Shown here: positions 1,205 to 17,121 of the stretch, piece after piece
Numbering within the stretch: position 1 is the stretch's first letter
How the letters are laid out: every line of letters starts with the position of its first letter
DNA from: Naegleria gruberi
Lineage: Eukaryota
Assembly: GCA_000004985.1 (NCBI GenBank)
Contig: GG738923.1
Strand: one strand, 5' to 3'
DNA length: 64,000 nt
The notes under the pieces: generated by a model
Databases searched by the model: none
Told to the model about the DNA's origin: nothing
Seen by the model: only the letters and a program-made list of their open reading frames with translations
Made by a program: the position numbers and the translations under genes

Positions 1205-1447
1205 GCATTCTGTTACAAAAATTGTTGAGCTAGTTCTCAATCTAGGTAGTTACAACCAGTAACGCTCTCTAATGGTAATGCACAAGTTGTATGTGTGCTC
1301 AATCCAACCTAACAACCCACAATATTAAAACATTATTTATTTTAAATCAATTCGGTTTTATTTAATTTCGCCTCTTTGCTAAAATTATATTATTTGCGAT
1401 ATTTAAATGTGCAAAACAAAATCATTCAATTATACTAACAAAAACAA

Positions 1448-1624
1448 ATGAATCAACAACCAAACAATCAAGATAGAGAAATTGCCAAGACTGAAACATG
1501 TCCATGCCCTGAGCAAGATAAAAAACCATTTGACATCTCACAGAAGAAACAGTGTGAGGGAACAAAGAAAGTTTGTGATGAGAATGGATGCAGAGATGTT
1601 CCTTGTTTGTATTTTGCTAGTTAA
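1448..1624 (+). CDS. Candidate small Cys-rich protein (58 aa): MNQQPNNQDREIAKTETCPCPEQDKKPFDISQKKQCEGTKKVCDENGCRDVPCLYFAS
   Basis: ATG in an A-rich context (aaaaacaaATG). Six cysteines in 58 aa. Codon usage resembles neighbouring genes, and local GC is higher than the flanking AT-rich spacer. It sits in the 495-bp gap between the TK stop and the DyP stop. It is below the 60-aa ORF-track cutoff and has no recognisable family. Confidence 0.3.
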   Translation: MNQQPNNQDREIAKTETCPCPEQDKKPFDISQKKQCEGTKKVCDENGCRDVPCLYFAS

Positions 1625-1698
1625 ACTCGCGTTTTATAAGGTTTAAGGCCACTCCCAATAACATTGTAAATAAAATGTACTATTATATTTCAAAAATA

Positions 1699-2799
1699 TT
1701 ACAACCTTGAAGGTCTATAGCTTGTCAATTTCTCTCGCATTTTCAATAACGTTCCAATAGAAGGAATAAAATACAGCGAGCCTAAAATATTAGTGGAAAA
1801 TCTCATAATATGATCATTGTGACCTTGTGGAGTGGCATATTCGCCCTTTCCAACCATGCTCTCCAATTGATGAATGAAGGTTTTTCCAGAGTTTGCATAC
1901 GAAATGAAGAATAATCCATGTTGTGATGAATTTCCAAAGCTCATTGATTGCCTCACAACCTCAATTTCATCTCCGTCCTTTTCTAAAGTGACACGAGCCA
2001 CATGGGAAGTTTCTGGCTTATTTTCCAACTCGATGCTATCCTCTTTCGTTCTTCCAATATCATTCTCTTGTTCTTTCAATGAAAGTGAATTGAAAAATTT
2101 GAGATTGTGAACCCATTTCTGAGCCAAGAGGAAACTATCCTTTTCATTGGTGAGGGTTGCCTCAATTTTCTCTTCCATTTCTTTTGGATTTTCAGTTCCA
2201 TCCTCGAATCCACTCAAATCTCTTCCAAGACCAGATTTCTTATTTCTTCTATGGAGGAATGCATAGGTTTCATCCTGAATTTTCTTTATCAATGGAGAAA
2301 TAAATTCATGATTTGCAAAATCCTGAGTAGCTCTAAAACAATTGTCCATATTTACAGATTTAATGTGAAGAAATAAATCTCCACCAGTATTTGGAAAACC
2401 ACCAAATTTACCCTTCAAATCTTTAGGATATTGTGGAAATATTTCTGCCTGCATATATTCTCTTACATAATCCAGTGAATTATCTTGTATATTTCCTAAA
2501 ATTGAATTGGTCAACTCATATCCAAATCCAACAGCAAACTGTGTGCATTTTTCTTTATTCCACCTCTCCATAATCTGCAAACAAGCTTCCACTAATTTAA
2601 AATAAATTTTCATAGCCTTCCCATTTGATGAACTCTTCAGCTCATCCTTCAATTCAATCGTAACAAAACAAGCATGATCCGAGATTGGAGTTAATATCGT
2701 CGATTGGCAATGTTTCTCACCATGCCGATGATGGTGATGATTCTCATGGTGTGCGTGATGATGATGGTGATGATTATGCAAGTGATGCAGTGAGGACAT
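1699..2799 (-). CDS. DyP-type (dye-decolorizing) heme peroxidase family protein, 366 aa, with a His-rich N-terminus (HHLHNHHHHHHAHHENHHHHRH)
   Basis: N-terminal hallmark QSTILTPISDHACFVTIEL resembles the GILTPxxxHAxFxxxD motif of DyP/EfeB. GFEDGTENP matches the GFKDGTxNP distal-Asp motif. TSHVARV fits the proximal-His region. ATG at 2797-2799 on the minus strand is preceded by an A-run. Stop TAA is at 1699-1701 (minus). Confidence 0.6.
   Translation of the reverse strand: MSSLHHLHNHHHHHHAHHENHHHHRHGEKHCQSTILTPISDHACFVTIELKDELKSSSNGKAMKIYFKLVEACLQIMERWNKEKCTQFAVGFGYELTNSILGNIQDNSLDYVREYMQAEIFPQYPKDLKGKFGGFPNTGGDLFLHIKSVNMDNCFRATQDFANHEFISPLIKKIQDETYAFLHRRNKKSGLGRDLSGFEDGTENPKEMEEKIEATLTNEKDSFLLAQKWVHNLKFFNSLSLKEQENDIGRTKEDSIELENKPETSHVARVTLEKDGDEIEVVRQSMSFGNSSQHGLFFISYANSGKTFIHQLESMVGKGEYATPQGHNDHIMRFSTNILGSLYFIPSIGTLLKMREKLTSYRPSRL
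2706..2790 (-). repeat. Imperfect CAT/CAC codon repeat encoding the poly-His tract of the DyP-like protein
   Basis: Plus strand reads catgccgatgatggtgatgattctcatggtgtgcgtgatgatgatggtgatgattatgcaagtgatg; the reverse complement gives runs of CAC/CAT (His) codons. Confidence 0.6.
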
Positions 2800-2967
2800 T
2801 TTTTTTCTACTTGATTTTTATGTTTGAGGAAAACTTCAAAATTTCCCGCCTCTGTAATCCTCTTCAATATTCAATTATAACTTTATGTTAATCTTAATAA
2901 ATATTATTAAATCAATTCATCAAACCTTTGATATTTATTGTAAACTTGCAAGTTCATCTTTAAAAAA

Positions 2968-4020
2968 ATGTCTCAATACAACAACACTAACACATTCCAT
3001 CCACAACCAACAAATACAACAATAACTTCAGCACCACTCACGAGAGGAATTCGCTCCATTTCTAATTGTCCAGACGTGATAGAGGCTCTTGTTCAAGTGT
3101 TGGCTCATCTCGATCCTGTGGTAGAACAATATTTATTCAAACAACAACATGATGATCATCAGATCAAATCGGATGAAAGATCGGAACTTGGGGTAGCCTT
3201 TGATAGGGTATGTAGGAGTGTGTGGAGTCTTGATCAAGGTAGTAGTGAACCTGTTGATGGTTCAGCTTTGGGTGGGTTATTTCCTATGGAAAGTGGTATC
3301 TCCCTTGATTTTGTGGAGGCTTTGAATATTGTGGTCGATGCTTGTCGTGGGAATTTTAATTTTTGTAAAGGAATGACATCTAATTGGATAAGAAGTGATG
3401 ATTGTCCAATATGTGGTTGTAAATCTGCAAGCGAAAGAAAGGAAGAGTTTTGTTCAATCAAGGTGCCAAGTAATCAGTGGAAAGAGTTTGAAAAAAGTGG
3501 AGTGTTGAATCTGAAGGAGGTAGAAACAATTGAAGGATATCATTGTGATGTGTGTTCATTTAGTAAGCCTGCTGAAATTTCTCGTTCCATCAGTCAAGCT
3601 CCACAAATATTGATTTTACAAATGGATCGTTTCTGTTTCGATTATGAAACATTTAATGTTGTTAAAAAGAATGATTTTTACAAGGTTTATCTTAATCAAC
3701 AATTGAAACTATTGATGGAAAATAATTCTTTGGAATCCTATGAATTGGTTGCTGTAGTGAATCATTATGGATTGCAGACATCAGGTTCTTATGGAGGATT
3801 CTTTTTAAATCCAACCAATAGAAGATGGTACAAAGTAGCTTGCCCAAATCAGGTTCCAACTCTTGTTGAAGACTTTAGTACAATCAACAATGTCTCAAAT
3901 TATGTTTATTTCTTTAAGAAGGCAGCTGAAAAGAAATCATGGCAATCTACTGCCTTGTCCAGCCAGTCTGTATCAGATATTTCATTTTCCTTCACGAATG
4001 AAGAAGACTGTGAAATGTAA
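2968..4020 (+). CDS. Ubiquitin carboxyl-terminal hydrolase (USP / peptidase C19)-like protein, 350 aa, probably a catalytically inactive pseudo-deubiquitinase
   Basis: Degenerate Cys-box GIRSISNCPDVIEALVQVL (canonical GLxNLGNTCYMNSxLQCL). USP finger zinc ribbon CPICGC ... CDVC. QILILQMDRF matches the LxLxLKRF motif. His-box YELVAVVNHYGLQTSGSYGGFF ... WYKVACPNQV keeps the first His, but the catalytic GHY His is Ser (GSY) and the FDD Asp is replaced (VAC). ATG at 2968 in the context aaaaaaaATG. Confidence 0.55.
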   Translation: MSQYNNTNTFHPQPTNTTITSAPLTRGIRSISNCPDVIEALVQVLAHLDPVVEQYLFKQQHDDHQIKSDERSELGVAFDRVCRSVWSLDQGSSEPVDGSALGGLFPMESGISLDFVEALNIVVDACRGNFNFCKGMTSNWIRSDDCPICGCKSASERKEEFCSIKVPSNQWKEFEKSGVLNLKEVETIEGYHCDVCSFSKPAEISRSISQAPQILILQMDRFCFDYETFNVVKKNDFYKVYLNQQLKLLMENNSLESYELVAVVNHYGLQTSGSYGGFFLNPTNRRWYKVACPNQVPTLVEDFSTINNVSNYVYFFKKAAEKKSWQSTALSSQSVSDISFSFTNEEDCEM

Positions 4021-4289
4021 ATTCTTCTTGAACTGTTGTCGACCATTATAAGCTGTGAAAATCTTGAATTCTCCCTTTCCATCATCGTTTGGAAACCAAA
4101 CTAATCTGGATTGTTCTGGATTTTCAACATCCCCAATAAATTCTCTTGTCCAATTCAGAGTTTACGAATTTATCCATCATTCCAACCATATTCCAAATGC
4201 CAAATGTGAAATTATTAATGATATGGTGAATAATACACAACAGGAGAAAATGAATTTCCAATTTTTATTAGAATTTTAATTTAAAAAAA

Positions 4290-5159
4290 ATGAAGCGGTC
4301 AGTAACTAATGAAGGCCATCAAAAGAACAAGAAAAAGAAAAGCACTTATTCCAATTCTTCATCATTTAAATTTGTTGATTTGCCTTCCGAAATGATTGGT
4401 AACATTCTTGATTATTCACTCATAAGTGATGGATTATCACTCGTCACTACATGTAAACAATTCCACAACGATCACTACAACGAACATTTATTGTTCTCTC
4501 CATGCAAGTATATGAAATTAATGGCAAATATGACACCTTATCAATTGAAACTGCACCATAAAGCAGCAACTCATATGAAAGATCAAATGAGAGCCAAAGA
4601 GATTTATGAGAATGAAAAGAAGAAATTCAAATGCATGTTGAAATTAATTAAAAAAGAAATTGGAAAGAAAACAGCACGTGAATTGAAAAAAAAACTTTTC
4701 AAGAAAGTGATTTATAACAAAATAGATGCACAAGACACCAGAAGAGAAATAACAATTGGAGAATGTTCTATCATTCATGAATCAAGTTTTGAGTCAAATA
4801 TTCAAAGTTATGAAAGTATTGATGCACAGGTTTGGTATTCATGTAAAATTGTTAAGGATAATGAGGTTTATGAAATAGTTGACAACTGTTCATGGTTATG
4901 TGACAGTCAAGGAACGTGCACTACTGATGATCTAAATGAGCTATTAACTATTGATCATAATATAGATTCTAAATTAGTGTTAGCTTGCTTGCTCATGACA
5001 GCTCCTCTACTGAGCTGGTCAGTTGTGAAGAATGAATATCCAACTTCATTTTCTTCGAATAAGCCACCTGAAATATATTTTAGTGGTTCGATTACTTTAA
5101 CCAAGCAATCAGCTTCTATTAATGATATCGTGCAACAAGTGTTCAATTGGGCCATATAA
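4290..5159 (+). CDS. F-box domain protein (289 aa), K-rich, no other recognisable domain
   Basis: FVDLPSEMIGNILDYSLISDGLSLVTTCKQFHN fits the F-box consensus LPxEIxxxIxxxLxxxDLxxxxxVCKxW. ATG at 4290 in the context aaaaaaaaATG. Stop TAA at 5157-5159. Confidence 0.45.
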   Translation: MKRSVTNEGHQKNKKKKSTYSNSSSFKFVDLPSEMIGNILDYSLISDGLSLVTTCKQFHNDHYNEHLLFSPCKYMKLMANMTPYQLKLHHKAATHMKDQMRAKEIYENEKKKFKCMLKLIKKEIGKKTARELKKKLFKKVIYNKIDAQDTRREITIGECSIIHESSFESNIQSYESIDAQVWYSCKIVKDNEVYEIVDNCSWLCDSQGTCTTDDLNELLTIDHNIDSKLVLACLLMTAPLLSWSVVKNEYPTSFSSNKPPEIYFSGSITLTKQSASINDIVQQVFNWAI

Positions 5160-5914
5160 ATAGTAAATGCTTATTCATTGTTGGGTGTTGAAAACTTATT
5201 CACTGTTGTGATGGTTGTATATTATTGACAATTTCTTCTTTTGAGTGAAAGGATTGTACGGGCATAAATTTTTGCACTACTATTGAATAGTTGCGTATTG
5301 ATTAGTGATTCTATTGAGTTATCAACACATTGATGCCAAACATTGGAGTAAACTTCCTAAGATAATCAACATATTCATCATGCACACAAATTCCAAAATC
5401 CAATTCTCAATATTCGACACTTCATTAAATTCATCCCATTCCGTTTCTTCCGTTTTAAAAGCAAAATCCCTAAATAAATGTCTCGTACTCGCCACTCGAT
5501 ACCAGGAAATTAAAAAGCAATTGGAAATAATTTGTCTTAATTTTCTTGTAATATTGCAACATTTTACAATGAGTATTTTAAAGATCTTCATATTGTAAAG
5601 ATTCATCACAACCAGCATTTTGTGTTATTTTTAAATCAAAAAAAAGATAAAAAGTATTTAAGATCGGAATTGATTACATTTAACAATTTTCATAAAGAGA
5701 TATTTATTCTCAATTAATATCAAATCATATCCACCTTTAGATTAATATTTCAATGATCAACACCATTATTAACAACTCTCATCAAAAAACAACATTAAAT
5801 TCCTTAATCTCCATCATCAAACATACTTCTCTCCCTTAGAAATATGATCATCCACTCACCAAACATGGTCCCTATCTTCTCCAAACATGTCCACCTCCAT
5901 TACTCTTCCCATAT

Positions 5915-5979
5915 GTTAATACGTTAATATTAACGAGTTTGCAAGTTCTTGAAAGTGCTTCACAAGATTGAATCTTGTG
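5915..5979. promoter_or_regulatory. Two perfect palindromes in the roughly 1-kb intergenic region, about 160-270 bp upstream of the gene starting at 6185: cgttaatattaacg (5922-5935, with tandem GTTAAT half-sites) and cacaagattgaatcttgtg (5961-5979)
   Basis: Read directly: tgttaatacgttaatattaacg and cacaagatt-g-aatcttgtg. Perfect 14-bp and 19-bp dyads. Confidence 0.25.
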
Positions 5980-6184
5980 ATCCGCAAACCTTTTTGCTTT
6001 CAACACGTTCCATTTCCAGACCATCATCAAAAAAAAAACTTTCCACATCAAGTTGCTAATTTTCTATATTTTGCCTTTAAAGAAATCTGAGCAGGAAATT
6101 AAGTGATTGGTTTAATTTTAGAGGTCTTCCCGTTGGTTGTGTCACTTCCGAAAGTTTTTATTGTTATTAATCATCATCATCATC

Positions 6185-7191
6185 ATGATGACAAGAAATT
6201 CTAGTCCGCTAGAAGGAAGAGAGGAGAATGGTGGACAACAAGATGATTTGAATGTTGTGTCATCAGCATCATCATTAACAAACTCATCATCATTTAATGG
6301 AAAGGATGCACAGCAATATGTGGGAGGAGTTTATAATAATAGACCCTCACCTATTAGGTATACATCACATTTAGGAATGCCAAAACATCAAAGTCCAAAT
6401 ACTGTGGCGAATGCAAATAGCTCTTCTTCAAATAGTGGTGGAGATGTGAAGGAAGAGGTGAATCCACTAAAGAGAAGATATTGTGATAATGATGATATGT
6501 TATTCGAGGTGCAAGAGAAACAATTACAAACACAGAAATATTTAACAATAGTACCATATGAAATCACCAATCATGATAGCGGTCAATTATTGACCTGTGT
6601 GAGAGGAAATAGACTTCCCATGTTGGTGAACAAGTTGGTTGATGAGGTGAATGAATATTTGAAAACTAATTCAGAAGAGGATGAGGAGGAAAAGGTTGTG
6701 GATGTGTATGCAATCCAAACAATGTTTTTGAATACAATTATGAGAATTGATTTATTTAATAACGAAGTGGGTGTTTATGATAGTGTTAAAAATAGAGTAT
6801 TTAAAGATTTGAAAATGGTAATGAGCCCTCCTGATTACTATCCGTTCAGTAAGTTTATTTTGAGTATGGACCTATTCACAATTTATCAGATTATCCAACA
6901 TTTTATGGAAAGGAAACTGATGAAGAATCTATTACAAATTATAACAAATTAATGGAATCTGATGAGATGTTTGATTTGAGGAAAAGTTATCAAACAAAAT
7001 ATACCAAAGCTTGGACTAAGGAGGAAAGAAAGAAATTCCAAGAAGGTTTAAAATTATTTGGTTATGGACATGATAGTAATAAGAAGATTGCTGAACATAT
7101 GGGCTCTTCAATTCACCCTAATCAAGTAGCTCACGAAAAACAAAAATTACAGCAACGTCACCAAAAGAAGAGAAAGAGAGCAAAGAAATAA
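6185..7191 (+). CDS. Myb/SANT (SHAQKYF-like) domain protein, probably one gene made of ORF 6137/6185-6952 plus ORF 6952-7191 joined by a short intron (candidate donor GTAAGT at 6849; candidate acceptors AG at 6889 or 6925)
   Basis: Likely start ATGATG at 6185 (the upstream LLLLIIIIIMM comes from a ttattgttattaatcatcatcatcat tract). The downstream ORF encodes WTKEERKKFQEGLKLFGYGHDSNKKIAEHMGSSIHPNQVAHEKQK, which matches the Myb/SANT pattern WTxEExxxFxxxLxxxGxGxWxxIAxxxG...QVxSHAQKY. The downstream frame is open back to 6853, exactly at the TAA inside the GTAAGT donor. The two ORFs abut with zero spacing (TAA at 6950-6952, ATG at 6952-6954). Confidence 0.45.
6849..6925 (+). other. Putative 77-nt intron (alternative 41 nt, 6849-6889) joining the two Myb-gene ORFs
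   Basis: GTAAGT at 6849-6854. AG acceptors at 6888-6889 and 6924-6925 both give intron lengths of 2 mod 3, as needed to move from frame 2 to frame 1. Intron AT content is lower than in the confirmed ligase intron, so this is tentative. Confidence 0.3.
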
Positions 7192-7205
7192 CTGTGGAAT
7201 CAATT

Positions 7206-10004
7206 TTATGGTCTTTCGGCTAACATTTGATTAATGTTGAGAATAATGGAAGAGTAGACTGTGACTGATTCTAAATAGTTTTGAATGAGGATTCTTTCAT
7301 TGTGACCGTGAATTCTTTGGAGATCTTCAGTCTTCTTTACGAGTCTCATTGGCAAATAGCCATATGCAAAATCACTCAACTTTCTATAATACTTGCTATC
7401 ACTACCAGCAATAAATAAATAAGGTGAAACAATCACATCTGGTTGAATATGATTAATTGCTCTCTTTACAACTTCAAACTCTACACAATCAACACAAGAT
7501 ACAGAGGAAGCTTCTTGACAATCGATCATTAAAGGTGTGACGGTAATGTTTGGATGATTGACAACCTTTTCCAAGTGGCTCTTGACACTTTGCAAATTAT
7601 CATACGGAGAGAATCTAGTATTGAGAATAAAGTTTGCCTTAGATGGCATTACATTACTTTGGACACCAGCAGCCACAATGGTTGGAGCAAAGCTAGTTCT
7701 AGCCAAAGCATTTGGTGGACCACCAATATAAGACAATGCAATACTCAAAGGATAGGCCAAAATATCAAGATTTGCAACAATGGCCTTCATGATATAACCT
7801 TCAGAGTGTGGAGCCAAACTGAGGAGAACATTATGAATGATTGGTTTAAGTAAATGGGCAGGCATTGGATTATTTTCAATTTCAAGGATGGCCTTTGACA
7901 ATGTTCCAATACAGCTAGTTCTTCCTGGCATGGAAGCATGACCTGGATTACAATTGGCTTGAATGTCGAAATTACAATAGCCCTTTTCTGCAATGGCAAC
8001 AAAGGCAATTGGAGAGGCAACACCTGGAAATTGTTGGTCAGCAATTTGACCTCCTTCATCCAAAACAAATGCAAATCTGACATTCTTCTTCAAAAAGTAT
8101 GAAGTAACTTTGGCAGCTCCATGAACTCCTCCAATTTCTTCATCCATACCAATAACAACATAGGTATCTCTTTGAGGTTTAACCAATAAATTTTCTCTTC
8201 TCAATTGATTAAGAGCTTCCAAAATTTCATAAACTCCATTCTTATCATCCAATGTGCCTCTTCCATGCAAGAAACCATTCACTTGTTTACCACTAAATGG
8301 TGGATATTCCCATTTAGATTCATCATTGATTGGCACAACATCCACATGTCCAGTCAATAGAACTGGTTTCTTTTCCTTATCACTTCCTCTCCATACCCAA
8401 ACTCTCGAAGCAAGAAAATCATCCTCTCCCTTAACTTCACTTTGAATAATATCTTGAGTAATTTCCTCCAAAACTCCCTCACTTTCAGAGAATAAAAGTG
8501 GGAAATCCTTCACCATTTGATCAAACAATTCATGGAAAAGTTGTTTATCCTTCTGATAATCAATAGTTGGTTTCTGAATAGCCCTAGCCAATCTCAACAC
8601 TGCATCAGCCTGTTCCTCCTTGCTCCAATTTAATTTACTAAATTGTTCGGAAGCCTTTGATTGTTCAATTCTCTTTGAAAATTCCAAATCTCTTTCTTTA
8701 ATAATTTTCATATTAAATGTATAGGTTCGGAATGCCATCAATCCAATCAACCCGATCGCAGCCAAGAATAATAATTTTAAAATCGATTTGATGAGTGAGC
8801 ACGCAAGATTTGAAATGGCCATTTTTTTAAGATGAAAACGGAGTGAATGTTCGGACAATTGTGCAGATGGACATTTTATGCATGGTGAGATGAAAGTTGT
8901 TTTTTGAGTTTCTCCAAAGATTATATCAGAAACAGATTTGATATCATCTTCTGAGGTAGCATTAACAATATGATAGGAATCAAGTGTATTTCTATCTATT
9001 TTCTTGAAATATTGTGTAATGATCGAGTTGATAACTAGTTTAAGATAATGATTAGCAATTTCTGATCTTTCTAATTCTGGTAAAATATTCGAAACGAGTT
9101 CTCTATCATATTTCACTCCATTTTCCAATTTTTTACAAAGAATATCTGGTTTTACAAAGAGAATGATCTTACGAGAAGGAATAAACCATCTCGTATTCAT
9201 AACCTCACCAATTAGGGATAGAGATTCGTCCATTCTTTGAACACTGTCATCTTCCATTATAGTTTGATTAAATTCTGAAAGAGAAACCATGTAAACTAAT
9301 GTATGAACATCCTCAAAGAAATGAATCCAAATCTTTCTTGAATTTCTCCTTCCCACAACATCAATCACTTGAATTTCAGTGTTTCGTCTCGTAATAGTTT
9401 CGTATATTGAAATTCCTTTAGATGTGGAAGAAATCAATGAATAGGGAGAAAATATTTTCCCACGTTCAATTCTCAAAACTAATTCCTTAACATTTTCGTA
9501 CATTGAAATTCCACCTCTACTCCACACCAATTCATAAAACTCTCTAAAAAAGGAAATTTTCCACAGATTGACCAATATTTCAACGCAATCTATTTTTTGC
9601 AATTCCATTTCTAAACAGTTGCTAGCATTATCTGTTGCACTTTCGAATAATAATCTCATCTCAGGTCGAATAATTTCTTTCAACAAGTAATTTCTCTCTT
9701 GCTCTCCCATCTCTTCCCAAATTCTCTCAACAACCAGCGAGCAGACAATTTGCAAATTATTTGCAAAGTTTGCTTCCATGTCGTCACGAAAAGTTGTTTC
9801 TATTCTTGTTTCGGTTTTTGCTGTTCTTGTTTCGGTTGTTGATACGAGTTGTAACATGTGAAATAATGTTGATTTGCCAGAATCGGAGGGACCTAGTAGG
9901 AGAACTTTTGAACATGGGCGATTTTTAATAATATTATAATTGGATTGTGTTAATGTGACATTTGGATTGGCGTTTGACTTGGTGTGTGATGGTTTTGTGC
10001 CCAT
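7206..10004 (-). CDS. 932-aa chimeric protein: N-terminal degenerate G-protein alpha-subunit-like domain (about aa 1-390), one transmembrane helix, and a C-terminal carboxypeptidase S-like M20A metallopeptidase (about aa 430-932)
   Basis: G-alpha part: MGTKPS (Gly2, Ser6 myristoylation pattern). P-loop KVLLLGPSDSGKST (plus strand about 9845-9910). Helical-domain-length insert. Switch I ISSTSKGI instead of RVKTTGI. Switch II DVVGRRNSRKIWIHFFEDVHTLVYMVSLSEF aligns with [31 protein letters not shown] (plus strand about 9337-9372). IILFVKPDIL replaces IILFLNKKDLF. VNATSED replaces TCATDT. TM helix LIKSILKLLFLAAIGLIGLMAF (about 8735-8800). M20 part matches yeast Cps1 throughout: WRGSDKEKKPVLLTGHVDVVPINDESKWEYPPFSG (about 8331-8360), GRGTLDDKNG, VVIGMDEEIGGVHGAA, FVLDEGGQI, IAEKGYCNFDI, HGHNERI. 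The ORF is continuous with no stop between the domains. Confidence 0.7.
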   Translation of the reverse strand: MGTKPSHTKSNANPNVTLTQSNYNIIKNRPCSKVLLLGPSDSGKSTLFHMLQLVSTTETRTAKTETRIETTFRDDMEANFANNLQIVCSLVVERIWEEMGEQERNYLLKEIIRPEMRLLFESATDNASNCLEMELQKIDCVEILVNLWKISFFREFYELVWSRGGISMYENVKELVLRIERGKIFSPYSLISSTSKGISIYETITRRNTEIQVIDVVGRRNSRKIWIHFFEDVHTLVYMVSLSEFNQTIMEDDSVQRMDESLSLIGEVMNTRWFIPSRKIILFVKPDILCKKLENGVKYDRELVSNILPELERSEIANHYLKLVINSIITQYFKKIDRNTLDSYHIVNATSEDDIKSVSDIIFGETQKTTFISPCIKCPSAQLSEHSLRFHLKKMAISNLACSLIKSILKLLFLAAIGLIGLMAFRTYTFNMKIIKERDLEFSKRIEQSKASEQFSKLNWSKEEQADAVLRLARAIQKPTIDYQKDKQLFHELFDQMVKDFPLLFSESEGVLEEITQDIIQSEVKGEDDFLASRVWVWRGSDKEKKPVLLTGHVDVVPINDESKWEYPPFSGKQVNGFLHGRGTLDDKNGVYEILEALNQLRRENLLVKPQRDTYVVIGMDEEIGGVHGAAKVTSYFLKKNVRFAFVLDEGGQIADQQFPGVASPIAFVAIAEKGYCNFDIQANCNPGHASMPGRTSCIGTLSKAILEIENNPMPAHLLKPIIHNVLLSLAPHSEGYIMKAIVANLDILAYPLSIALSYIGGPPNALARTSFAPTIVAAGVQSNVMPSKANFILNTRFSPYDNLQSVKSHLEKVVNHPNITVTPLMIDCQEASSVSCVDCVEFEVVKRAINHIQPDVIVSPYLFIAGSDSKYYRKLSDFAYGYLPMRLVKKTEDLQRIHGHNERILIQNYLESVTVYSSIILNINQMLAERP

Positions 10005-10229
10005 TTTTTTAAAGTTGAATTGCTTTCAGATACCTACAAAGAATTGAATGAAAATTTATTGTAAAGGAGTAACAGAACTTTCGAATAAAAAATTGCCAAT
10101 TACAATGTAATGTTTTTTCAAAGTTTCCAACAAGATTAATATAATCAAGGTCACTTCATGGACTTTGAGTTTCCAAATATCTTCCAGATTCGTCTCCTTT
10201 CGTTTCACAAACATCAAACCACAAAAAAA

Positions 10230-10433
10230 ATGTCTGACTCACTTGCGATTGGCATTGGAGCTGGAGTTGGAGGATTCGCAGGTGTTAGCATTCTTCTCAT
10301 TATCATCATTATTGCCATTGTACTATATCGGAGGAAAAGGAGACACCAGAGGAGAGGTTATATCGAGCAAGAAGGAGATTATTCGCATTATTATGCTGCC
10401 TCTGGTGAGACACTGCCAGGACATTTGCATTAA
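10230..10433 (+). CDS. Small single-pass membrane protein (67 aa): MSDSLAIGIGAGVGGFAGVSILLIIIIIAIVLYRRKRRHQRRGYIEQEGDYSHYYAASGETLPGHLH
   Basis: ATG at 10230 after an 8-A run. Glycine-zipper-like GIGAGVGGFAG followed by a hydrophobic stretch (TM), a basic stop-transfer RRKRRHQRR, and a Tyr-rich tail. The ORF-track start at 10158 is non-ATG, so 10230 is preferred. Confidence 0.35.
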   Translation: MSDSLAIGIGAGVGGFAGVSILLIIIIIAIVLYRRKRRHQRRGYIEQEGDYSHYYAASGETLPGHLH

Positions 10434-10683
10434 TGTGGTTTTTCTGGAGAGTTGATGAATGTAATGATTTGAAATAATTCGAAAATGTGAAAAATATTAC
10501 ATTGTAAATGAAATAGAATTTGATTTTTTTTTAAATTTTGAATTGTTGTTTTTCGAATTGACAAGGTTACTATTTAAGGAAACTGTAAAAAAGGTCTGTA
10601 TAAGTATTATTAAAATTGAAATCTATGATAGAACATACTTATCATTAAATCAATTGATGTAAAGCACTCTTAACTGAACACTA

Positions 10684-10702
10684 GGAAATTGGTCAAATTT
10701 CC
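10684..10702. promoter_or_regulatory. Inverted repeat ggaaatt-ggtca-aatttcc, about 130 bp upstream of the membrane glycoprotein ATG
   Basis: 7-bp perfect arms with a 5-bp spacer, read directly from the sequence. Confidence 0.15.
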
Positions 10703-10832
10703 AAATTGATTTGAAATCGAACAGTAATATGCAGAGCGCACAATAAGGAACACTAAGGGAAAGCAAAATCCCGTAGATGAGATTATGAAATAATAACATG
10801 TTGAAGATTTTGAATGAAAAAAAATAGGCGAT

Positions 10833-12356
10833 ATGAATGCATCGAAAATTCTACGACTTTGCTTTGTGATAAGTGTGTGGATGCTACTGCTTAATAATCA
10901 GCTTGTTAAGGGTTGTTTGTTCGGCCAAGTCATTAAAGAAACACTCGATGGTTCTTGTCAATATACCTATCAACACTATGGTTCTAATATTGGTTTTGTC
11001 GTGTCCTCCGATTTTGGCAAATATCAATACAAGTTAGAGCATATTGATAAGTGTGATGATTATTGCAAAAAGCTATATGCAAAGACTCAATTATTTATAA
11101 TGGATGCACTTGTCTTTTCTTTGGTTGATTTTGATCCAAACTCAGCTCATAGAGATGAAGGTTGGACACTAACCTTCTCCTATTATAATCTGGGTCCCAT
11201 GTGGGATATTGATCCAACCAAATTGACAATCAATATTACTACAAAGGATGGACTTGAAAAAATCCCTGAAATTAATATACCTGCTCAAGGAAATCAGTGG
11301 TATTCTCTGGTTAAGTTTAATGATTTTTTGAGAGATGGTATTCAAGAATTTAGAATTTCTCTAATTTCTCTGACTGGTCTTATTCCATTGAATGCAAATC
11401 TAGATCAAGAATATGATCTTGATTACCCTAGGTCTGTTAACTTTGTTGGAGACAAAAACAAAGTTCAAATGAATATTCTGGAATTATCTGGATTGCCTAC
11501 TAGAATTACTCTTTATAACGAGCAGCCTAACCAACTATTGAATTTTGCATGTTTCAAAAATAATGTCTATAACACAATGGGGAATTATAGATGGGAATCT
11601 AGTGGATCAATTTCAGATGTTTTAACTACCGTAACTCTTTCAAATATGACAACAGATGTCTTTGGAAATTTGGTGAGTGTGAATGCGACAACTCTTGAAT
11701 TGAATCTTGAAAATCCAAATTCTCTTTATGATAGCCTAACATCAACTCATTCTAAATATCTTGGCGGTTCTTCAGTTGCTAGCACTCTTACATTACAAGA
11801 TGGTAATATATTGAGAATTATGGCAGTTGACAAGGCATTCAGACAGCACTGCATTACTCCAAATCAACAAGTGATTGGATCAATGAAATTTGGACAAGTA
11901 ATCTCTTACCGAGTCCAAATATATCCTCAGCCATTTAGCAGTATTGGACAAGTCAACCTCAACATCTCTACATACACAAGTGTTCTATTCCTTCAAACCA
12001 CTCACTATGATGCAGACAGTTCTCAATTATGTTCATTAGCAGATCATGTGGATTTTGAAACTGAAGTCACCATCAAAGGAATGGATGTACATCAACCACT
12101 TTCGATTTCCAATGCAAAAAGAAACCACTTGATCGCCATGAATTTATTCTTTATTTGTAAGGCAGAGGAAGGTTGCAATTTTGATTTTACTCTTTCTGGA
12201 GGAACATCTCACAACCCAATTGATGAGACAACCATTATTATTGTGTCAAGCATTGCAGGAATTGCCTTGATTTTAAACATTATTGCCTTACTCGTAATGG
12301 TAGTAGTAGTTTATTTGACTATTAAACGAAGAAAGGTCTATGTCAGTATTCAATAA
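10833..12356 (+). CDS. Type I membrane glycoprotein of unknown function (507 aa), with a signal peptide, a large N-glycosylatable ectodomain, a C-terminal TM helix and a 12-aa cytoplasmic tail
   Basis: ATG at 10833. N-terminal MNASKILRLCFVISVWMLLLNNQLVKG has a hydrophobic h-region. Many N-x-S/T sequons (NIT, NMT, NAT, NIS). C-terminal IIIVSSIAGIALILNIIALLVMVVVVYL is followed by TIKRRKVYVSIQ and stop. Confidence 0.55.
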   Translation: MNASKILRLCFVISVWMLLLNNQLVKGCLFGQVIKETLDGSCQYTYQHYGSNIGFVVSSDFGKYQYKLEHIDKCDDYCKKLYAKTQLFIMDALVFSLVDFDPNSAHRDEGWTLTFSYYNLGPMWDIDPTKLTINITTKDGLEKIPEINIPAQGNQWYSLVKFNDFLRDGIQEFRISLISLTGLIPLNANLDQEYDLDYPRSVNFVGDKNKVQMNILELSGLPTRITLYNEQPNQLLNFACFKNNVYNTMGNYRWESSGSISDVLTTVTLSNMTTDVFGNLVSVNATTLELNLENPNSLYDSLTSTHSKYLGGSSVASTLTLQDGNILRIMAVDKAFRQHCITPNQQVIGSMKFGQVISYRVQIYPQPFSSIGQVNLNISTYTSVLFLQTTHYDADSSQLCSLADHVDFETEVTIKGMDVHQPLSISNAKRNHLIAMNLFFICKAEEGCNFDFTLSGGTSHNPIDETTIIIVSSIAGIALILNIIALLVMVVVVYLTIKRRKVYVSIQ

Positions 12357-12512
12357 ACAGTATTTCTTCTAACAAGCTTCAACCAACATGAAACTCTTCA
12401 CATTTAATCCATGTAAATCAGGAAAAGAATCTTTCTCAAAATGAGAAGAACCTCGTTTCAGAAATTCTCAGTATCCACTGTTTAGTGGAAATTGGATGAA
12501 CTTGGCGCCAAT

Positions 12513-12524
12513 AAAAAACGCTGG
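12513..12524. promoter_or_regulatory. Perfect palindromic E2F-like site TTGGCGCCAA(TA), about 65-85 bp upstream of the DNA ligase start codon
   Basis: cttggcgccaataaaaaacg. TTGGCGCCAA is its own reverse complement and resembles the overlapping inverted E2F sites TTTSGCGCCAAA found in replication-gene promoters. It shares GCGCCAATA with the TK upstream edge. Confidence 0.35.
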
Positions 12525-12585
12525 ATAAAAAAATTTGACAAAAATCAGAAAAAAAAATTTGGTAAACACAGTTTAAATAATAATA

Positions 12586-15500
12586 ATGGTAGGTTGATAA
12601 TGGTAATTTTCAAGGTAGATAATGATGGATAATTTGATGATTTGTGTTTATTATTATTTTTGTAGGCATCTAGATCCTCTTCATCTTCATCAAAGGATAA
12701 TTCGGGTAGATTCTCTGAATTTGTTGCCCTCTGTAAAGACATTGAAGAGGTATCGGCTCACACTGAAAAGAGTCAAGTGATGAAGGAGTTTCTATCCGAT
12801 TTCAAGGGAGATGTTTATTTGTTGTATAAATTATTATTTGCAAAGGAAAATCAGAGAAAGTTTAATTTAAAAGATAAGAAACTTGTTGATGTTTGTGCAA
12901 GTGCATTCGGAGAAGATCTTGATGAAATGATTGATCACATGGATTCTAAAGGAGATGTTTCTGAAACTTTAAAGAAATATTTAGTGAGAAGTGATCATGC
13001 AAGAGATAAAGGAATTGTTACTTTGAAACAGGTTGATGATTTCCTTGAAGAATTAACACAATTATCAAAGAAAGAAGATCAAATTCGTGCTTTTAAGAAA
13101 TTTGTAAATGATAAGTTAACTGGAGATGAATTGAAATTTATATGTAGAATAATTTGTAAAGATTTAAAGATTAGAGCTGGACCAAAATATTTATTAGCAG
13201 CACTTCATTCTGATGCTTATCAATCCTATATTTTAACACATGATTTGAAACAAATTGTAAATGTTATAACTAGTGGAAGTGATTTAAAAAATTTATCAAT
13301 GACAGCTCAATCACTTTTAGATATTGATGCATTGATTAAAGATGCAGATAGTGATGATGAAGGTACAAATTTTGATATGATGAATATATCAGATGATGAA
13401 GATGATAAAAAGAAGAAATCATCCAAAGCAACTTCTTCCAATGATAAAAAGAAGACAATTGATAAAAAGAAGAGTAGTAAATCATCAGATAATTCTGATA
13501 AGGATGATGATTCTGGAGATGAAACAGATATTGGTGAAAATGTGGATGATATTGAGGAAAAACCTGAAGAACTTGTAGATGAAGAATCAGAGGATGATTC
13601 TAAAAAGAAAAAGAAGAATAAGAAGGCTCCTAAGAAGATTAAAATATCAACCAAGATGAAACTTTTCCATCCTGTCAAACCAATGCTTGCTCGTCCAAGT
13701 AAGACTTATGATGATGTTATTGCTCGTTGTCCAAATGGTTTTTATTCTGAACTTAAATATGATGGTGAAAGAATTCAAATTCACTATGATAGAAAAAATG
13801 ATGAAATCAAATATTTTAGTAGAAATTTGAAAGATGTTCAAGAGTATAAGATCAAATCTGTAAAAAAGTATATTTCTAAAGCTATTAAGGAAAAGGTTGA
13901 ATCTGTAATTTTAGATGGTGAAATTTTAATGATGGATACAAAGACAAATAAGATTCTTCCATTTGGTACACTTGGTAAAAATGTTAGACAAGATCACAAA
14001 GATGCTGTAACAACTATATTTTTATTTGATATATTGTATTATAATGGTAAATCACTCCTTTCAGTTCCTTTATATAAGAGAAAGGCATTAATGACTAAAA
14101 TTGTAAATCCAATCAAACATAGAGTAATGTTAGGTGAATATTTGGTTGTAAAGGGTTCAAAACAAACAAGAGAAGCTATTGTTTCTGCTGAAATGAGTGC
14201 AATGATTAAGAAGGGTGAAGAAGGTTTAGTGGTATGTATTATTTTCAAATTTATTATTAATTTTTTTATTAACAATTTTACATATTAGTTAAAAGATTTA
14301 TGTTCTCCATATGAACCTAATGCTAGACATTGGCTTAAAATGAAAAAAGATTACTTGAAAGGTATGGCAGATAGTGTAGATCTTGTTGTTCTAGGAGCTT
14401 ATCTTGGTACAGGTAGTAAAGGTGGTTTAATGTCTGTATTCATGATGGGTTCTTTTGACAAGAAATTAGGAAAGTGGAGAATTATTTGTAAATGTGGTAA
14501 CGGACACGATGATCAAACTATTGAAACATTGAATGAAGAATTGAAATCAAATATGAAAAGAATCAGTAAGGATCCTTCATTGGTTCCAGATGATATTGAT
14601 ATTCATACTAATGCTCTTGTACCTGATTTTATTGTTAAAGATCCAAAAAAGAGTGTTGTTTGGGAAATTCAAGGAGCTGAATTTTCAGTTTCCTCAAGAA
14701 AAGACAGACCAATTTCTGTCAGATTCCCTAGAGTTACAAAAATTAGAGATGATAAGGATGTTTTAGATCATACCAATTATCAAGAAATTATCAAATTGAA
14801 AAATGAAAGTAATAGAAAAGGTTTAGTGCCTATTTTTGGAGATGCTGATGCAGGAGATGATTCTGATGAAAGTGTAGATGTAAAAGATAAAAAGAAACGT
14901 TCCAGAGCTAAAAAATCAAAATCTGATGATGAAGAAGATGAATCAGATTCAAGCTCAAAGAAAAAGAAAAATTCAAGAAAGAAGAAGATAAATTCCTCAG
15001 ATGATGAAGATGATGAGGATGATAAAAAGTCAGCTAAAAAGGCTAATGATAAGAAAAAATCAAAATCCTCAGATAATTCTGATGGTGAAGATGATGATCC
15101 AAAAGCAAAGAAAGCTAAAAAGTCAACTATTGGTATCAAATTATCTGATATTGATACTATTAATGACTCTTCTACTCCAGAACAAATCTATTACATTTAT
15201 GGTGATTTTATGAAAATGCCAATGAATAAGGAAGAAAAACTAATTTCACATTGTGTAGATGACTCTAGTAGATGGTCAGATAAAGGATCAATGGGAAATA
15301 TTGAACTCTTGTATGGTGAAGATATTAAGAAGGCTTACACTGATGATATGAACATAATTGGTGATGCTCAAATTGTTGTAGCATTACCAAATCATTTATG
15401 TAATATGGTATGTCTTCAATTTGTCAAGAAAGGATCTGCACCAAAAGTTGACTATCATGCTTTGGATGAATGTTTAAAGAAATGTGCTACCTACATGAAT

Positions 15501-15677
15501 CAAAAAAAGATTGGTACATTCCATTTATATAGATTGCATCACGCCATTTCTGGTTTGGATTGGAATAGAGTTGAACAACTTTTGAAGGAAAATCTTTCAA
15601 ACAAGGGATTTGCTGTTTTCATCTATACAAAGGATAGAGATGATAAGGATAGAGTTAATGAATCAAAAAATAAGTTG
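12586..15677 (+). CDS. LIG1: ATP-dependent DNA ligase I, three exons: exon 1 is the ATG only (12586-12588, or alternatively 12600-12602); exon 2 is 12666-14231; exon 3 is 14289 to at least 15677, where the 3' end is lost in the N gap. At least 986 aa. Carries two K/D/E/S-rich inserts and a C-terminal extension of about 190 aa beyond the conserved core.
   Basis: Exon 2 opens right after an acceptor ttattatttttgtag|GCA and encodes FSEFVALCKDIEEVSAHTEKSQVMKEFL (compare human LIG1 [28 protein letters not shown]). Motif I is ELKYDGERIQIHY (KxDGxR). Motif V EGLV is joined across the intron to LKDLCSPYEPNARHWLKMKKDYL (compare EGLMVKTL...YEIAKRSHNWLKLKKDYL). DLVVLGAYLGTGSKGG and ISVRFPRVTKIRDDK match the OB/conserved C-terminal motifs. 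Reading through the 14232-14288 intron gives the stop TAG at 14286-14288. Confidence 0.85.
12589..12665 (+). other. Intron 1 of the DNA ligase gene, immediately after the start codon (77 nt; 63 nt if ATG 12600 is used)
   Basis: aataataATG|gtaggt...tttgtttattattatttttgtag|GCATCT. Frame check gives M + ASRSSSSSSKDNSGRFSEF... in phase 0. No in-frame ATG exists in exon 2 upstream of the conserved region except this one. Confidence 0.55.
13341..13655 (+). repeat. Low-complexity coding insert (D/E/K/S-rich, about 105 aa) between the DNA-binding and adenylation domains of the ligase
   Basis: DADSDDEGTNFDMMNISDDEDDKKKKSSKATSSNDKKKTIDKKKSSKSSDNSDKDDDSGDE...KKKKKNKKAPKK, generated by GAT/GAA/AAG-rich triplets. 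It also creates the spurious antisense ORF 13307-13678. Confidence 0.7.
14232..14288 (+). other. Intron 2 of the DNA ligase gene (57 nt, GTATGT...TATTAG)
   Basis: Conserved motifs EGLV and LKDLCSPYEP are contiguous only after removing this AT-rich segment. It ends with an in-frame TAG, so it cannot be coding. Confidence 0.8.
14841..15125 (+). repeat. Second low-complexity D/E/K/S-rich insert (about 95 aa) after the ligase catalytic core. It contains a 15-nt exact copy (tcagataattctgat, 15069-15083) of a segment in the first insert (13485-13499).
   Basis: DADAGDDSDESVDVKDKKKRSRAKKSKSDDEEDESDSSSKKKKNSRKKKINSSDDEDDEDDKKSAKKANDKKKSKSSDNSDGEDDDPKAKKAKK. KSSDNSD is shared with the first insert at the nucleotide level. 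Confidence 0.7.
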
Positions 15678-15727
15678 NNNNNNNNNNNNNNNNNNNNNNN
15701 NNNNNNNNNNNNNNNNNNNNNNNNNNN
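15678..15727. other. Assembly gap (50 N) of unknown true length. It removes the 3' end of the ligase gene and the 5' half of the following kinase gene.
   Basis: Run of n characters. The flanking ORFs are both open into the gap. Confidence 0.95.
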
Positions 15728-16170
15728 CTGAAAAGAATGGTTAAATTGGTTGACTTTGGGTTGAGTTGTCAACCAACAGATTCACTAAGAAGGAACATAC
15801 ATTATTTTGTGGAAATAGTAATTATGCATGTCCTGAACTGTTACTAAAGAAGGCATATGGATCTGAAGTTGATGTCTATGCACTAGGAGTCCTTCTCTAT
15901 AAGATACTGTTTGGTTGTTTCCCATTTCGTGGAGCTCAACAGAAATTGCTCATGCACTTTACAGTCCCACTGAAGGATGATGTAAATGGAGATGATGCAA
16001 TGGGAAGTGATGATTGTGGTCAGAATATTTCGAAATGTTGTAAAGATTTGTTGCATAATATTTTGGAAGTCAATTGTGAAAAGAGATTTTCCATACAAGA
16101 TATCAAGAATCATCAATGGTACAAGATTGGAAAAACTCAGAAGGTGGATTTACTAGAAAGTCACGAATAA
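15728..16170 (+). CDS. C-terminal fragment of a Ser/Thr protein kinase (CAMK/AMPK-like catalytic subdomains VII-XI), with an apparent frameshift just after the DFG motif
   Basis: Frame A reads LKRMVKLVDFGLS (subdomain VII, 15728-15766). From about 15769, frame B reads STNRFTKKEHTLFCGNSNYACPELL (subdomain VIII, compare TxCGTPxYxAPE), VDVYALGVLLYKILFGCFPF (subdomain IX) and KRFSIQDIKNHQWY (subdomain XI). TAA at 16168-16170. The N-lobe is missing in the gap. Confidence 0.6.
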
Positions 16171-16505
16171 ATATATAGCCAATGTTCAAGATTTCCAATC
16201 AATCTGTTAAATTCTTTCTTTCATTATATTTTACACACTTTATATTGTGAATCATTTCCACACATATATATGAGAATTGGAGAGATAACAGTTTGGATTG
16301 AAGAAGAGCTAATGATGCACATTTATTTTGATTCGAATTTTCAAAAAAGTTGCCTCAAATCATCACCATAATGGTCGTAGAAATTGTTTATTTCAAAGCT
16401 CACGAAGAGGTAATTATATTCCGCACATAATGATGGTTTACAATATTTATCACAAAATTGAAAAATAGGAATTATTGAATTATTGAAATTAATTGCACAA
16501 GTTGA

Positions 16506-17024
16506 ATTGAATACCAATTAACTGGACTCGAAGGAGAATCGTGGAAAAATCATAAACCATTTACAAGATATGGTCAACTTCCCTACTTGAAAGTTTCAGA
16601 TGATTTTCATGTTTATCAAACATTGGCAATTGCCAGATATCTTGCTCAGGAAGGTAATTTATATCCTCTCAATGAAAGAAGGGATGCAACTCTCACTGAA
16701 GAAGTAGTTGCTTCCTTAAATGAAGTTTTGCTTGAATTCTTTAGAGTTTTCTATGAAATTTGCAATGAAACAGAGAAGGAAGAAGAATTGAAGAAATTTA
16801 AGGAAGGAACTTTGCAAAGAGTATTTAGTGGATTGAATAATTTATTGAATGGAACTAAGTGCGGATATTTCATTGAAGGAATGTTGACATGGGCTGATCT
16901 TTTTCTTTTGGAAATTGTATTAAATTTAGAAAGTGTTGGAATTGCAAATGAATATCAAAGATTGAAACAAATTTTGATGGAAAATGAGCAAGTTAAGATT
17001 CATTTGGAAACGAGAAGAAAATAA
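16506..17024 (+). CDS. Sigma-class (HPGDS-like) glutathione S-transferase, 3' portion. The open frame runs from 16506 to the stop; the 5' exon(s) encoding the first roughly 35 aa are not resolved.
   Basis: ESWKNHKPFTRYGQLPYLKVSDDFHVYQTLAIARYLAQEGNL aligns with HPGDS ADWPEIKSTLPFGKIPILEVDGLTLHQSLAIARYLTKNTDL (the QSxAIxRYL hallmark). A helical C-terminal domain follows. The ORF-track start at 16587 is a TTG, not ATG. An in-frame TGA at 16503-16505 closes the frame upstream. Confidence 0.7.
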   Translation: MEYQLTGLEGESWKNHKPFTRYGQLPYLKVSDDFHVYQTLAIARYLAQEGNLYPLNERRDATLTEEVVASLNEVLLEFFRVFYEICNETEKEEELKKFKEGTLQRVFSGLNNLLNGTKCGYFIEGMLTWADLFLLEIVLNLESVGIANEYQRLKQILMENEQVKIHLETRRK

Positions 17025-17121
17025 ACAATTTCATTAATCAAAATCTTTGATGTTGATATCATTCGAATGTTAAATAAGAATTGTAATCTCCAAGATATTC
17101 TCATAAAAAAACATAATTATA

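Follow-up and report, generated by a model that had tools for sequence, protein, structure and literature searches.

The window analysed here is a stretch of 64,000 nucleotides from Naegleria gruberi (assembly GCA_000004985.1, contig GG738923.1). Downstream of a membrane-protein ORF (10833-12356), positions 12586 to 15677 carry what is, judged by its sequence, the 5' three quarters of the N. gruberi orthologue of DNA ligase III (LIG3). The features of the locus are collected in Table 1. An earlier, sequence-only reading of this DNA had recognised a ligase gene here; its exon and intron coordinates hold, and the gene is borne out as one for an ATP-dependent DNA ligase.

Table 1. Features of the N. 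gruberi ligase locus (positions in the window; a slash marks an exon-intron border)
Feature	Position	Strand	Remarks
Intergenic DNA and 5' leader	12357-12585	+	follows the membrane-protein ORF upstream and reaches to the ligase ATG
Start codon	12586-12588	+	putative sole coding bases of the first coding exon; context common to Willaertia magna
Intron 1	12589-12665	+	phase 0, 77 nt, gtaggt...tttttgtag
Exon 2	12666-14231	+	residues 2-523; DNA-binding domain (DBD), acidic/basic insert, most of the nucleotidyltransferase (NTase) domain
DBD	12711-13208	+	Pfam DNA_ligase_A_N, residues 17-182, E 2.5e-31
Low-complexity insert, acidic then basic	13335-13652	+	about residues 225-330, between DBD and NTase
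NTase (adenylation) domain	13680-14345	+	residues 340-542, E 1.4e-51; split by intron 2
Motif I, KYDGER	13755-13772	+	K365
Motif III, LDGEIL	13911-13928	+	in NTase domain
Motif IIIa	14019-14039	+	in NTase domain
Motif IV, EGLV/LK	14220-14294	+	spans intron 2
Intron 2	14232-14288	+	phase 0, 57 nt, gtatgt...atattag
Exon 3	14289-15677	+	residues 524-986; ORF open at the gap
Motif V, WLKMKKDY	14331-14354	+	after intron 2
OB-fold domain	14421-14756	+	Pfam DNA_ligase_A_C, residues 568-679, E 3.8e-11
Motif VI, RFPRVTKIRDDK	14721-14756	+	in OB domain
K/D/E/S-rich low-complexity linker	14817-15173	+	residues 700-818
ALC1-like macrodomain	15174-15650	+	residues 819-977; complete upstream of the gap
50-N assembly gap	15678-15727	.	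ligase ORF still open at 15677
3' part of another gene, for a protein kinase	15728-16170	+	stop 16168-16170; not ligase

As had been noted earlier, the ligase frame opens at the acceptor 12665/12666 with no in-frame ATG on its 5' side, and two start codons are each followed by a donor, ATG/gtaggt at 12586 and ATG/gtaatt at 12600. Directly before the opening stands an in-frame TAG (12663-12665), whose last two letters also serve as the acceptor AG. The former is the earliest ATG in the leader; the latter, spliced at gtaatt, would yield an identical protein. Intron 1 could alternatively use a donor at 12603, for a length of 63 nt, or one at 12615, for a length of 51 nt and with VIFK added to the protein. 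The start context aataataATG/gta of N. gruberi reads caataataATG/gtacgt in Willaertia magna, where a 60-nt intron is followed by GCTTCC, and ATG/gtacgt...aaag/GCTTCA in a Naegleria-like metagenome contig (L002) is compatible with an intron of 104 nt. The public N. gruberi model begins MASRSS, and MAS- N-termini occur in two species annotated independently. These observations support the proposal, already made in the sequence-only reading, that the first coding exon consists of the start codon alone, followed by a phase-0 intron up to 12665. The further claim that this was the only way to start the frame went too far, as ATG12600-GTAATTTTCAAG spliced at the in-frame GT donor of 12615 (AAG/gtagat) would also be in frame, giving MVIFK-ASRS, and in the L002 contig the frame is open upstream and has in-frame ATGs. 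Nevertheless, we regard a start other than the isolated ATG as improbable, because Willaertia permits only ATG/gtacgt, the M-A-S N-terminus is shared, and the ATG at 12586 comes first. A start without intron 1 at the first in-frame ATG of the ORF (12780, M39) would lie downstream of residues conserved with human LIG3 and the orthologues; the protein sequence of residues 12-38 is conserved even in human LIG3, and this start is thus excluded.

The leader also contains a 10-bp palindrome, TTGGCGCCAA, at 12502-12511, which we take to resemble an E2F-type site. It was dropped as regulatory evidence, since it is not present upstream of the gene in Willaertia or in the L002 contig.

The translation of exon 2 is 100% identical to the public protein XP_002669721.1, and its DBD aligns with that of human LIG3 in the structure 3l2p. 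The insert that follows contains a conserved stretch, DSGDETDIGENVDDIEEKPEELVDEES, and a run of KKKKKNKKAPKKIK; it is found at variable length in the heterolobosean orthologues but not in human LIG3, in which two aligned stretches flank it. A role of the insert as a nuclear localisation signal or phospho-motif would be speculation. Intron 2, predicted earlier at the same 57 nucleotides, ends in an in-frame TAG and must therefore be spliced out, and its removal yields EEGLV/LKDL, continuous with the homologues. In Willaertia a 47-nt intron with the same gtatgt donor lies at the identical position (EEGLV/FKDL), such that both N. gruberi intron positions recur in that species; the L002 species lacks intron 2, its gene being a single ORF. 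What we take to be motifs I, III, IIIa, IV, V and VI of the nucleotidyltransferases (KYDGER, LDGEIL, FLFDILY, EGLVLK, WLKMKKDY and RFPRVTKIRDDK) are all intact. Intron 2 splits motif IV; it does not, as had been thought, lie between motif V and a later motif, WLKMKKDY being motif V itself.

In its catalytic core (DBD-NTase-OBD), the protein resembles LIG3 more closely than LIG1 or LIG4. In comparison with the PDB, the core matched LIG3 (3l2p) with 415.6 bits (E 3.9e-123), while the best LIG1 entry scored 161.8 bits (E 2.4e-46), 254 bits lower, and the best LIG4 entry 160.2 bits; the nearest named homologues of the protein are LIG3 proteins. Relative to human LIG3, the part missing from the Naegleria protein is the PARP-type zinc finger. 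No Pfam match to PF00645 was obtained in the ligase, and the 229 nt between the upstream stop and the start codon leave no room for a zinc-finger exon. This domain is not universal in LIG3, being present in the animal and Gefionella proteins and absent from the dictyostelid and heterolobosean ones.

The gene is indeed cut at 15677 by the run of N, as had been reported, but its true end, left as unknown at that time, can be inferred from a second N. gruberi copy, XP_002669061.1, and from the orthologues. The second copy, an allele or a paralogue on a 99-kb scaffold, is about 99% identical to the copy in the window, with most of the differences falling in the linker (residues 700-818), and it carries a BRCT plus a Pfam LIG3_BRCT (PF16759, E 2e-27). 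A LIG3-type BRCT is also found in the Willaertia and Acrasis orthologues; the ligase sequence in the window ends before that region. The gap would then hide about 261 aa of the ligase (residues 655-915 of XP_002669061.1), comprising a linker, a BRCT, a LIG3_BRCT and the stop codon. The full protein, reconstructed from the second copy and the orthologues, would have about 1,245 aa in the order DBD, acidic/basic insert, NTase, OB, charged linker, ALC1-class macrodomain, BRCT and LIG3-type BRCT. The kinase fragment beyond the gap covers Pkinase positions 150-262, so that the gap hides, besides the end of the ligase, the DNA between the two genes and no fewer than 150 initial positions of the kinase domain, which amounts to at least 1.3 kb of missing sequence. 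Kinase and ligase are united in one protein by the public model XP_002669721.1 (NAEGRDRAFT_75379) alone, a three-gene chimera (ligase-kinase-GST) joined across the gap and inherited by UniProt entry D2W1U2.

We then turn to the domain behind the linker, for which the sequence-only reading had considered a macro fold without accepting it, leaving the domain unplaced and suggesting structure prediction. By sequence and by predicted structure, it is a macrodomain of the ALC1/CHD1L class. A phmmer search of the PDB returned CHD1L (E 1.3e-10), BT1257 (6e-9) and SCO6735 (1.4e-6). The region was modelled with AlphaFold2 as a macrodomain with the three-layer alpha/beta/alpha fold (pLDDT 93.3, pTM 0.89), and the top Foldseek matches of the model were all macrodomains of the ALC1/TARG1/DarG group, BT1257 and SCO6735 among them (2fg1, E 3.8e-12; 5e3b, 1.4e-11; ALC1, 6e-10; DarG, 4e-9; TARG1, 5e-9). 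Pfam Macro (PF01661) and Macro_2 gave no match to the domain even at E <= 1, and only the sequence search of the PDB and the comparison of folds revealed it. With the macrodomain by itself as query, a word-indexed homology search came back empty; relatives of the domain were sought by exhaustive HMMER search instead. A reading as BRCT was rejected, and so was one as TfoX_C, which at E 0.04 fell short of the family threshold. In the aligned sequences, D829 of YIYGDF (15192-15209) corresponds to D723 of ALC1, and G856 of KGSMG (15282-15296) to G750; ALC1 requires both residues for binding of poly(ADP-ribose) (PAR), D723A and G750E being its PAR-binding mutants (PMC7895907). These correspondences suggest PAR as the ligand of the Naegleria macrodomain. 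Loop 2, however, reads RLHH where ALC1 has RIGH, and the ligand could thus differ from PAR, or be bound weakly. Searches of the searchable literature turned up neither an account of the Naegleria LIG3 macrodomain nor experiments on any LIG3 macrodomain.

The order LIG3 core, macrodomain, BRCT is also found in Willaertia, Acrasis, dictyostelids, diplonemids and Gefionella, and is thus spread over Heterolobosea, dictyostelids, diplonemids and a malawimonad. From this spread, the arrangement of LIG3 core, ALC1-type macrodomain and two BRCTs may be the ancestral eukaryotic DNA ligase III, the animals having later swapped the macrodomain for PAR sensing by zinc finger and XRCC1, and the macrodomain might also gate the ligase allosterically; we consider this possible but doubtful. 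In a rough neighbour-joining tree of macrodomains, those of ALC1 and LIG3 cluster apart from the bacterial stand-alone ones with 33% bootstrap; the LIG3 macrodomains were not recovered as one clade in this poorly supported tree.

Two readings would deny that the locus encodes a macrodomain-bearing LIG3. The gene had earlier been assigned to DNA ligase I, in which case it would lack the PIP-box N-terminus and carry a new C-terminal domain that defies classification. LIG1, LIG3 and LIG4 have the Pfam ligase domains in common, and Pfam names no family for the C-terminal domain; but the assignment proved wrong, and we hold it to be highly improbable, given the difference of 416 against 162 bits for the core, the LIG3_BRCT of the second copy and the orthologues, and a C-terminal domain that is confidently modelled as a macrodomain. 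For a LIG3 orthologue, the missing PIP-box region is irrelevant. It is hardly conceivable, on the other hand, that the macrodomain region is a separate gene fused to the ligase by an artefact of annotation or assembly. The public model at the locus is truly chimeric across the gap, but the macrodomain lies upstream of it, in a single uninterrupted ORF (14289-15677) that runs from the OB domain through the macrodomain, and the same order recurs across many genera, in assemblies and transcriptomes produced independently. The sequence-only reading, too, had placed the extra domain on the ligase polypeptide.

With all six ligase motifs present, nick sealing is expected, and the core would perform it through the usual lysine-AMP mechanism at K365. 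In vertebrates, recruitment of LIG3 is linked to PAR through its zinc finger at the N-terminus and through XRCC1, its partner. In Naegleria, the macrodomain would bind the PAR that PARPs produce at DNA breaks, thereby concentrating the ligase at these sites, and the pair of C-terminal BRCTs would bind partners; the N. gruberi genome encodes PARPs, along with as many as seven PARGs of the bacterial type (PMC4245714). PAR-guided recruitment to breaks is the likely role, and as a whole we judge it quite probable that the gene encodes a LIG3 orthologue with a macrodomain and two BRCTs that is recruited in this manner. The structural neighbours also include the hydrolases TARG1, DarG and SCO6735, and a lysine (VKKG) aligns with the catalytic K84 of TARG1, such that the macrodomain could instead be a TARG1/DarG-like ADP-ribosyl hydrolase stripping ADP-ribose from DNA ends or proteins before sealing. 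This seems unlikely, because the equivalent of K84 varies (K/Q/R/H/S) across the LIG3 macrodomains, the position of D125 is a Ser in Naegleria (the alignment in that loop being uncertain), so that the Lys84/Asp125 dyad of TARG1 was not found in the alignment, and among the sequence relatives of known role the nearest is ALC1, a reader. An autoinhibitory switch of the ALC1 kind, in which the macrodomain docks on the ligase core until released by PAR, would be compatible with recruitment. The proximity to the ALC1 macrodomain by sequence and in the rough tree speaks for it, as does a remodeller (P0146) built of SNF2, macro and LIG3_BRCT, which shows that such modules are exchanged between the two protein types; with a disordered linker of 120 residues between core and macrodomain and a poorly resolved tree, we find it rather unlikely.

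The result corrects the public annotation, in which the chimera XP_002669721.1 was created by the scaffold gap, and shows how Naegleria LIG3 is really built. LIG3 with a macrodomain, which was known from Dictyostelium, is now seen in Discoba and a malawimonad as well, a range that is relevant to how early eukaryotes connected PAR signalling with the sealing of breaks; the LIG3 macrodomain subfamily is missed by Pfam.

Compared with known systems, the Naegleria macrodomain has the fold of TARG1/OARD1 and DarG (TM about 0.7-0.8) and the same GD motif, at 16-18% identity and without conservation of the catalytic aspartate of TARG1. Human ALC1/CHD1L (7enn, 7epu, 9t4v) is the best sequence match among solved structures, with YxxGD, HCVDDSGxW and HLxR(I/L)xH...W in common at about 26% identity; its macrodomain sits on a SNF2 ATPase, that of Naegleria on a ligase. 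Human DNA ligase III alpha shares the DBD, NTase and OB core with all catalytic motifs, and a C-terminal LIG3-type BRCT is common to human LIG3 and the second N. gruberi copy; the human enzyme carries a PARP-like zinc finger at its N-terminus and a single BRCT but no macrodomain, whereas the Naegleria one has no zinc finger (the orthologues begin at the same place), one macrodomain and two BRCTs. The macrodomain of Dictyostelium DNA ligase III has already been reported (Gunn et al., 2016, J Cell Sci, PMC5087659), and the layout being published, the Naegleria case is a re-annotation and represents no new mechanism or kind of system. Like the Naegleria protein, D. discoideum LIG3 (DDB_G0283857) has a LIG3-type core, a macrodomain and BRCTs without the PARP zinc finger, and the dictyostelid macrodomains match that of Naegleria at the same place in the protein. 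Identity between the two macrodomains is only about 20-25%, loop 2 is shorter by 2 residues in the dictyostelids, which also have NxxDNSG in place of HCVDDS, and Naegleria, unlike Dictyostelium, has the acidic/basic insert of roughly 100 aa between DBD and NTase. The two belong to separate lineages, Naegleria to Discoba and Dictyostelium to Amoebozoa.

The fragment is real and was delimited correctly in the sequence-only reading, which had assigned it to DNA ligase I. Three generic ATP-dependent ligase domains were detected by Pfam, and against solved structures the core scored 415.6 bits with human LIG3 (E 3.9e-123) versus about 162 and about 160 bits with LIG1 and LIG4, respectively. The named homologues are the LIG3 of amoebozoans, rotifers, insects, molluscs and vertebrates, and all six catalytic motifs are intact. 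Taken together, these scores, homologues and motifs identify the gene, at the level of sequence, as a DNA ligase III orthologue; the ligase I assignment does not hold, and the missing PIP-box region, which had been remarked upon, is irrelevant to a LIG3 orthologue. Animal LIG3 has a PARP-like zinc finger, whereas the Naegleria protein has none; the mere 229 nt between the ligase start and the upstream membrane-protein ORF leave no space for it, and the orthologues begin at the same place. This upstream ORF (10833-12356, + strand; 507 aa), without a match in Pfam, ends with one transmembrane helix and a short tail of basic residues. A perfect 10-bp palindrome, TTGGCGCCAA, located at 12502-12511, 75 nt 5' of the ligase start codon, looks like overlapping E2F-type sites; it was absent 5' of the orthologues of Willaertia and of the Naegleria-like metagenome species. 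Between the DNA-binding and adenylation domains there is an insert of about 100 aa, acidic then basic (13335-13652), specific to heterolobosean LIG3, with a conserved S/D-D-E/D-T-D-I motif and a poly-K run. That it might hold a CK2-type phospho-motif (FHA-binding, as in XRCC1 or XRCC4) and an NLS is pure speculation.

The ligase frame does open at 12666, directly after an in-frame TAG (12663-12665) that provides the AG of a pyrimidine-rich acceptor. The first in-frame ATG within the ligase ORF is M39 (12780). Residues 12-38 (DNSGRFSEFVALCKDIEEVSAHTEK) are kept throughout the heterolobosean orthologues and can be aligned to human LIG3; being conserved, they are taken as coding, and a start upstream of M39 is therefore needed. 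Two starts had been proposed as the sole options, ATG/gtaggt (12586) and ATG/gtaatt (12600), and both indeed yield M-ASRSS, but a third in-frame option was overlooked: ATG12600...AAG/gtagat, with the donor at 12615, giving MVIFK-ASRSS. In Willaertia magna the arrangement is caataataATG/gtacgt, a 60-nt intron and aatag/GCTTCC, with no other in-frame solutions; in the Naegleria-like metagenome contig it is ATG/gtacgt, 104 nt and aaag/GCTTCA, the upstream frame being open as well. MAS is the N-terminus in two annotations produced independently. Overall, we favour a first exon that would consist of the ATG only. The second intron (14232-14288, 57 nt, gtatgt...attag, with an in-frame TAG at its end) is also real, as the unbroken EEGLV/LKDL demands its removal. 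Willaertia has an intron at exactly this position, with the donor also gtatgt, and the metagenome species has none there. The intron had been placed after motif V; in the motif naming that we assume, its position is within motif IV.

The C-terminal domain, previously considered unplaceable and not a macro fold, resolves to a macrodomain, which is complete and ends before the gap, the latter sitting in a linker 3' of it. A Pfam search of the segment tabulated below returned no matches. A PDB sequence search, however, retrieved the CHD1L/ALC1 macrodomain (E 1.3e-10), BT1257, the macrodomain protein 5e3b (SCO6735) and, weakly, TARG1. The AlphaFold2 model, with 16 homologues as input, was confident (pLDDT 93.3, pTM 0.89), and its top Foldseek matches in the PDB were 2fg1, 5e3b, ALC1, DarG and TARG1 (E 4e-12 to 5e-9, TM 0.7-0.8), which we take to be the ALC1-like macrodomain class.

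Coordinates of the macrodomain, the C-terminal domains of the second copy, the gap and the parts of the public model
Feature	Residues	Window position	Basis or remark
Macrodomain	~819-977	15174-15650	PDB sequence search, AlphaFold2, Foldseek
BRCT (P0003)	708-782		
LIG3_BRCT (P0003)	824-903		E 2e-27
N gap		15678-15727	50 N
Chimera part 1, ligase		to 15671	spliced to part 2 across gap
Chimera part 2, kinase 3' end		15814-16158	spliced to part 3 past kinase stop into GST gene
Chimera part 3, GST 3' part		16536-17021	

The alignment contains YIYGD (D829 = ALC1 D723), HCVDDSSRW and KG (G856 = ALC1 G750); ALC1 D723A and G750E serve as PAR-binding mutants (PMC7895907). A hydrolase like TARG1 or DarG, both found among the structural matches, is disfavoured, since the catalytic Asp125 of TARG1 is missing from the Naegleria macrodomain; the position of TARG1 Lys84 is variable in the alignment. 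An autoinhibitory switch, as in ALC1, would be a hypothetical alternative. We propose that the macrodomain would read the PAR made at breaks and so recruit the ligase, whose nick-sealing core is intact as judged by sequence. PAR-guided recruitment falls to the zinc finger and XRCC1 in animals. N. gruberi possesses PARPs and bacterial-type PARGs (PMC4245714).

The second N. gruberi copy (P0003, XP_002669061.1), a 5'-truncated model on a 99-kb scaffold, shares about 99% identity across 654 aa, with differences mostly within the low-complexity linker, among them one 1-residue indel; it is either a haplotig representing another allele or the product of a recent duplication. It runs on past ...NESKNKL for 261 further residues, which include two BRCT domains, and the same layout is found in the orthologues of Willaertia (1209 aa), the Naegleria-like contig (1223 aa) and Acrasis (1228 aa). 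The gap is followed directly by the 3' portion of a protein kinase gene (Pkinase profile positions 150-262, stop at 16168). Given the presumed hidden ligase C-terminus and the missing 5' part of the kinase, the 50 Ns therefore represent at least 1.3 kb.

Real sequence occupies bases 1-17121 of the window (G+C about 30-35%), with N padding from 17122 on. The public model of the locus (XP_002669721.1, NAEGRDRAFT_75379, UniProt D2W1U2; 1260 aa, window 12666-17021) is the best protein match, with 100% identity along the entire query, and is a three-gene chimera, its parts linked by two false introns, one spanning the N gap and the other the kinase stop codon. In the kinase fragment (15728-15830), the DFG motif KLVDFGLS reads in the frame of 15728 but the activation-loop/APE segment TLFCGNSNYACPELL in that of 15730, an apparent 1-nt indel near 15760-15775; this could be low-quality contig-edge sequence or a pseudogene. 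The GST-like gene (16371-16560 region) has its own start ATG at 16371, MVVEIVYFKAHEE, and a donor GAG/gtaatt at 16410; the N-terminal segment IIELLKLIAQVELNTN of this gene reads in the frame of 16471 and the next, LTGLEGESWKNHKPF, in that of 16470, a second apparent frameshift in the final 1.4 kb of the scaffold.

When 1.84 billion representatives were searched exhaustively with HMMER, only 163 matches to the macrodomain were obtained at E <= 0.001. Architectures were classified for about 165 macrodomain-matching proteins pooled from both homology searches: a ligase core is also present in 23, with BRCT in 22 of these, 13 are macro+BRCT fragments, nine are ALC1-type SNF2 remodellers and the remainder are short stand-alone proteins. 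One remodeller of the ALC1 type (P0146, a Logan contig, 1018 aa) combines an SNF2 ATPase, the macrodomain and a LIG3-type BRCT, and thus, in some protist, the two protein types, ALC1-like and LIG3, appear to have a macro+BRCT cassette in common. Named members are Naegleria, Willaertia, Acrasis, several dictyostelids, the diplonemids Diplonema japonicum and Namystynia karyoxenos, and the malawimonad Gefionella okellyi, in whose protein the zinc finger is present as well; the macrodomain matches of Gefionella and Namystynia are partial and weak. A rough NJ tree gave no resolution on a single origin of the LIG3 macrodomains, and our literature search found no description of a LIG3 macrodomain in Naegleria. 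The value of this analysis is chiefly an annotation correction and an evolutionary data point. The macrodomain is a known fold and the architecture is already described in Dictyostelium, where Gunn et al. 2016 (PMC5087659) reported a macrodomain in DNA ligase III and a 2021 review (PMC8529158) mentioned it anew.
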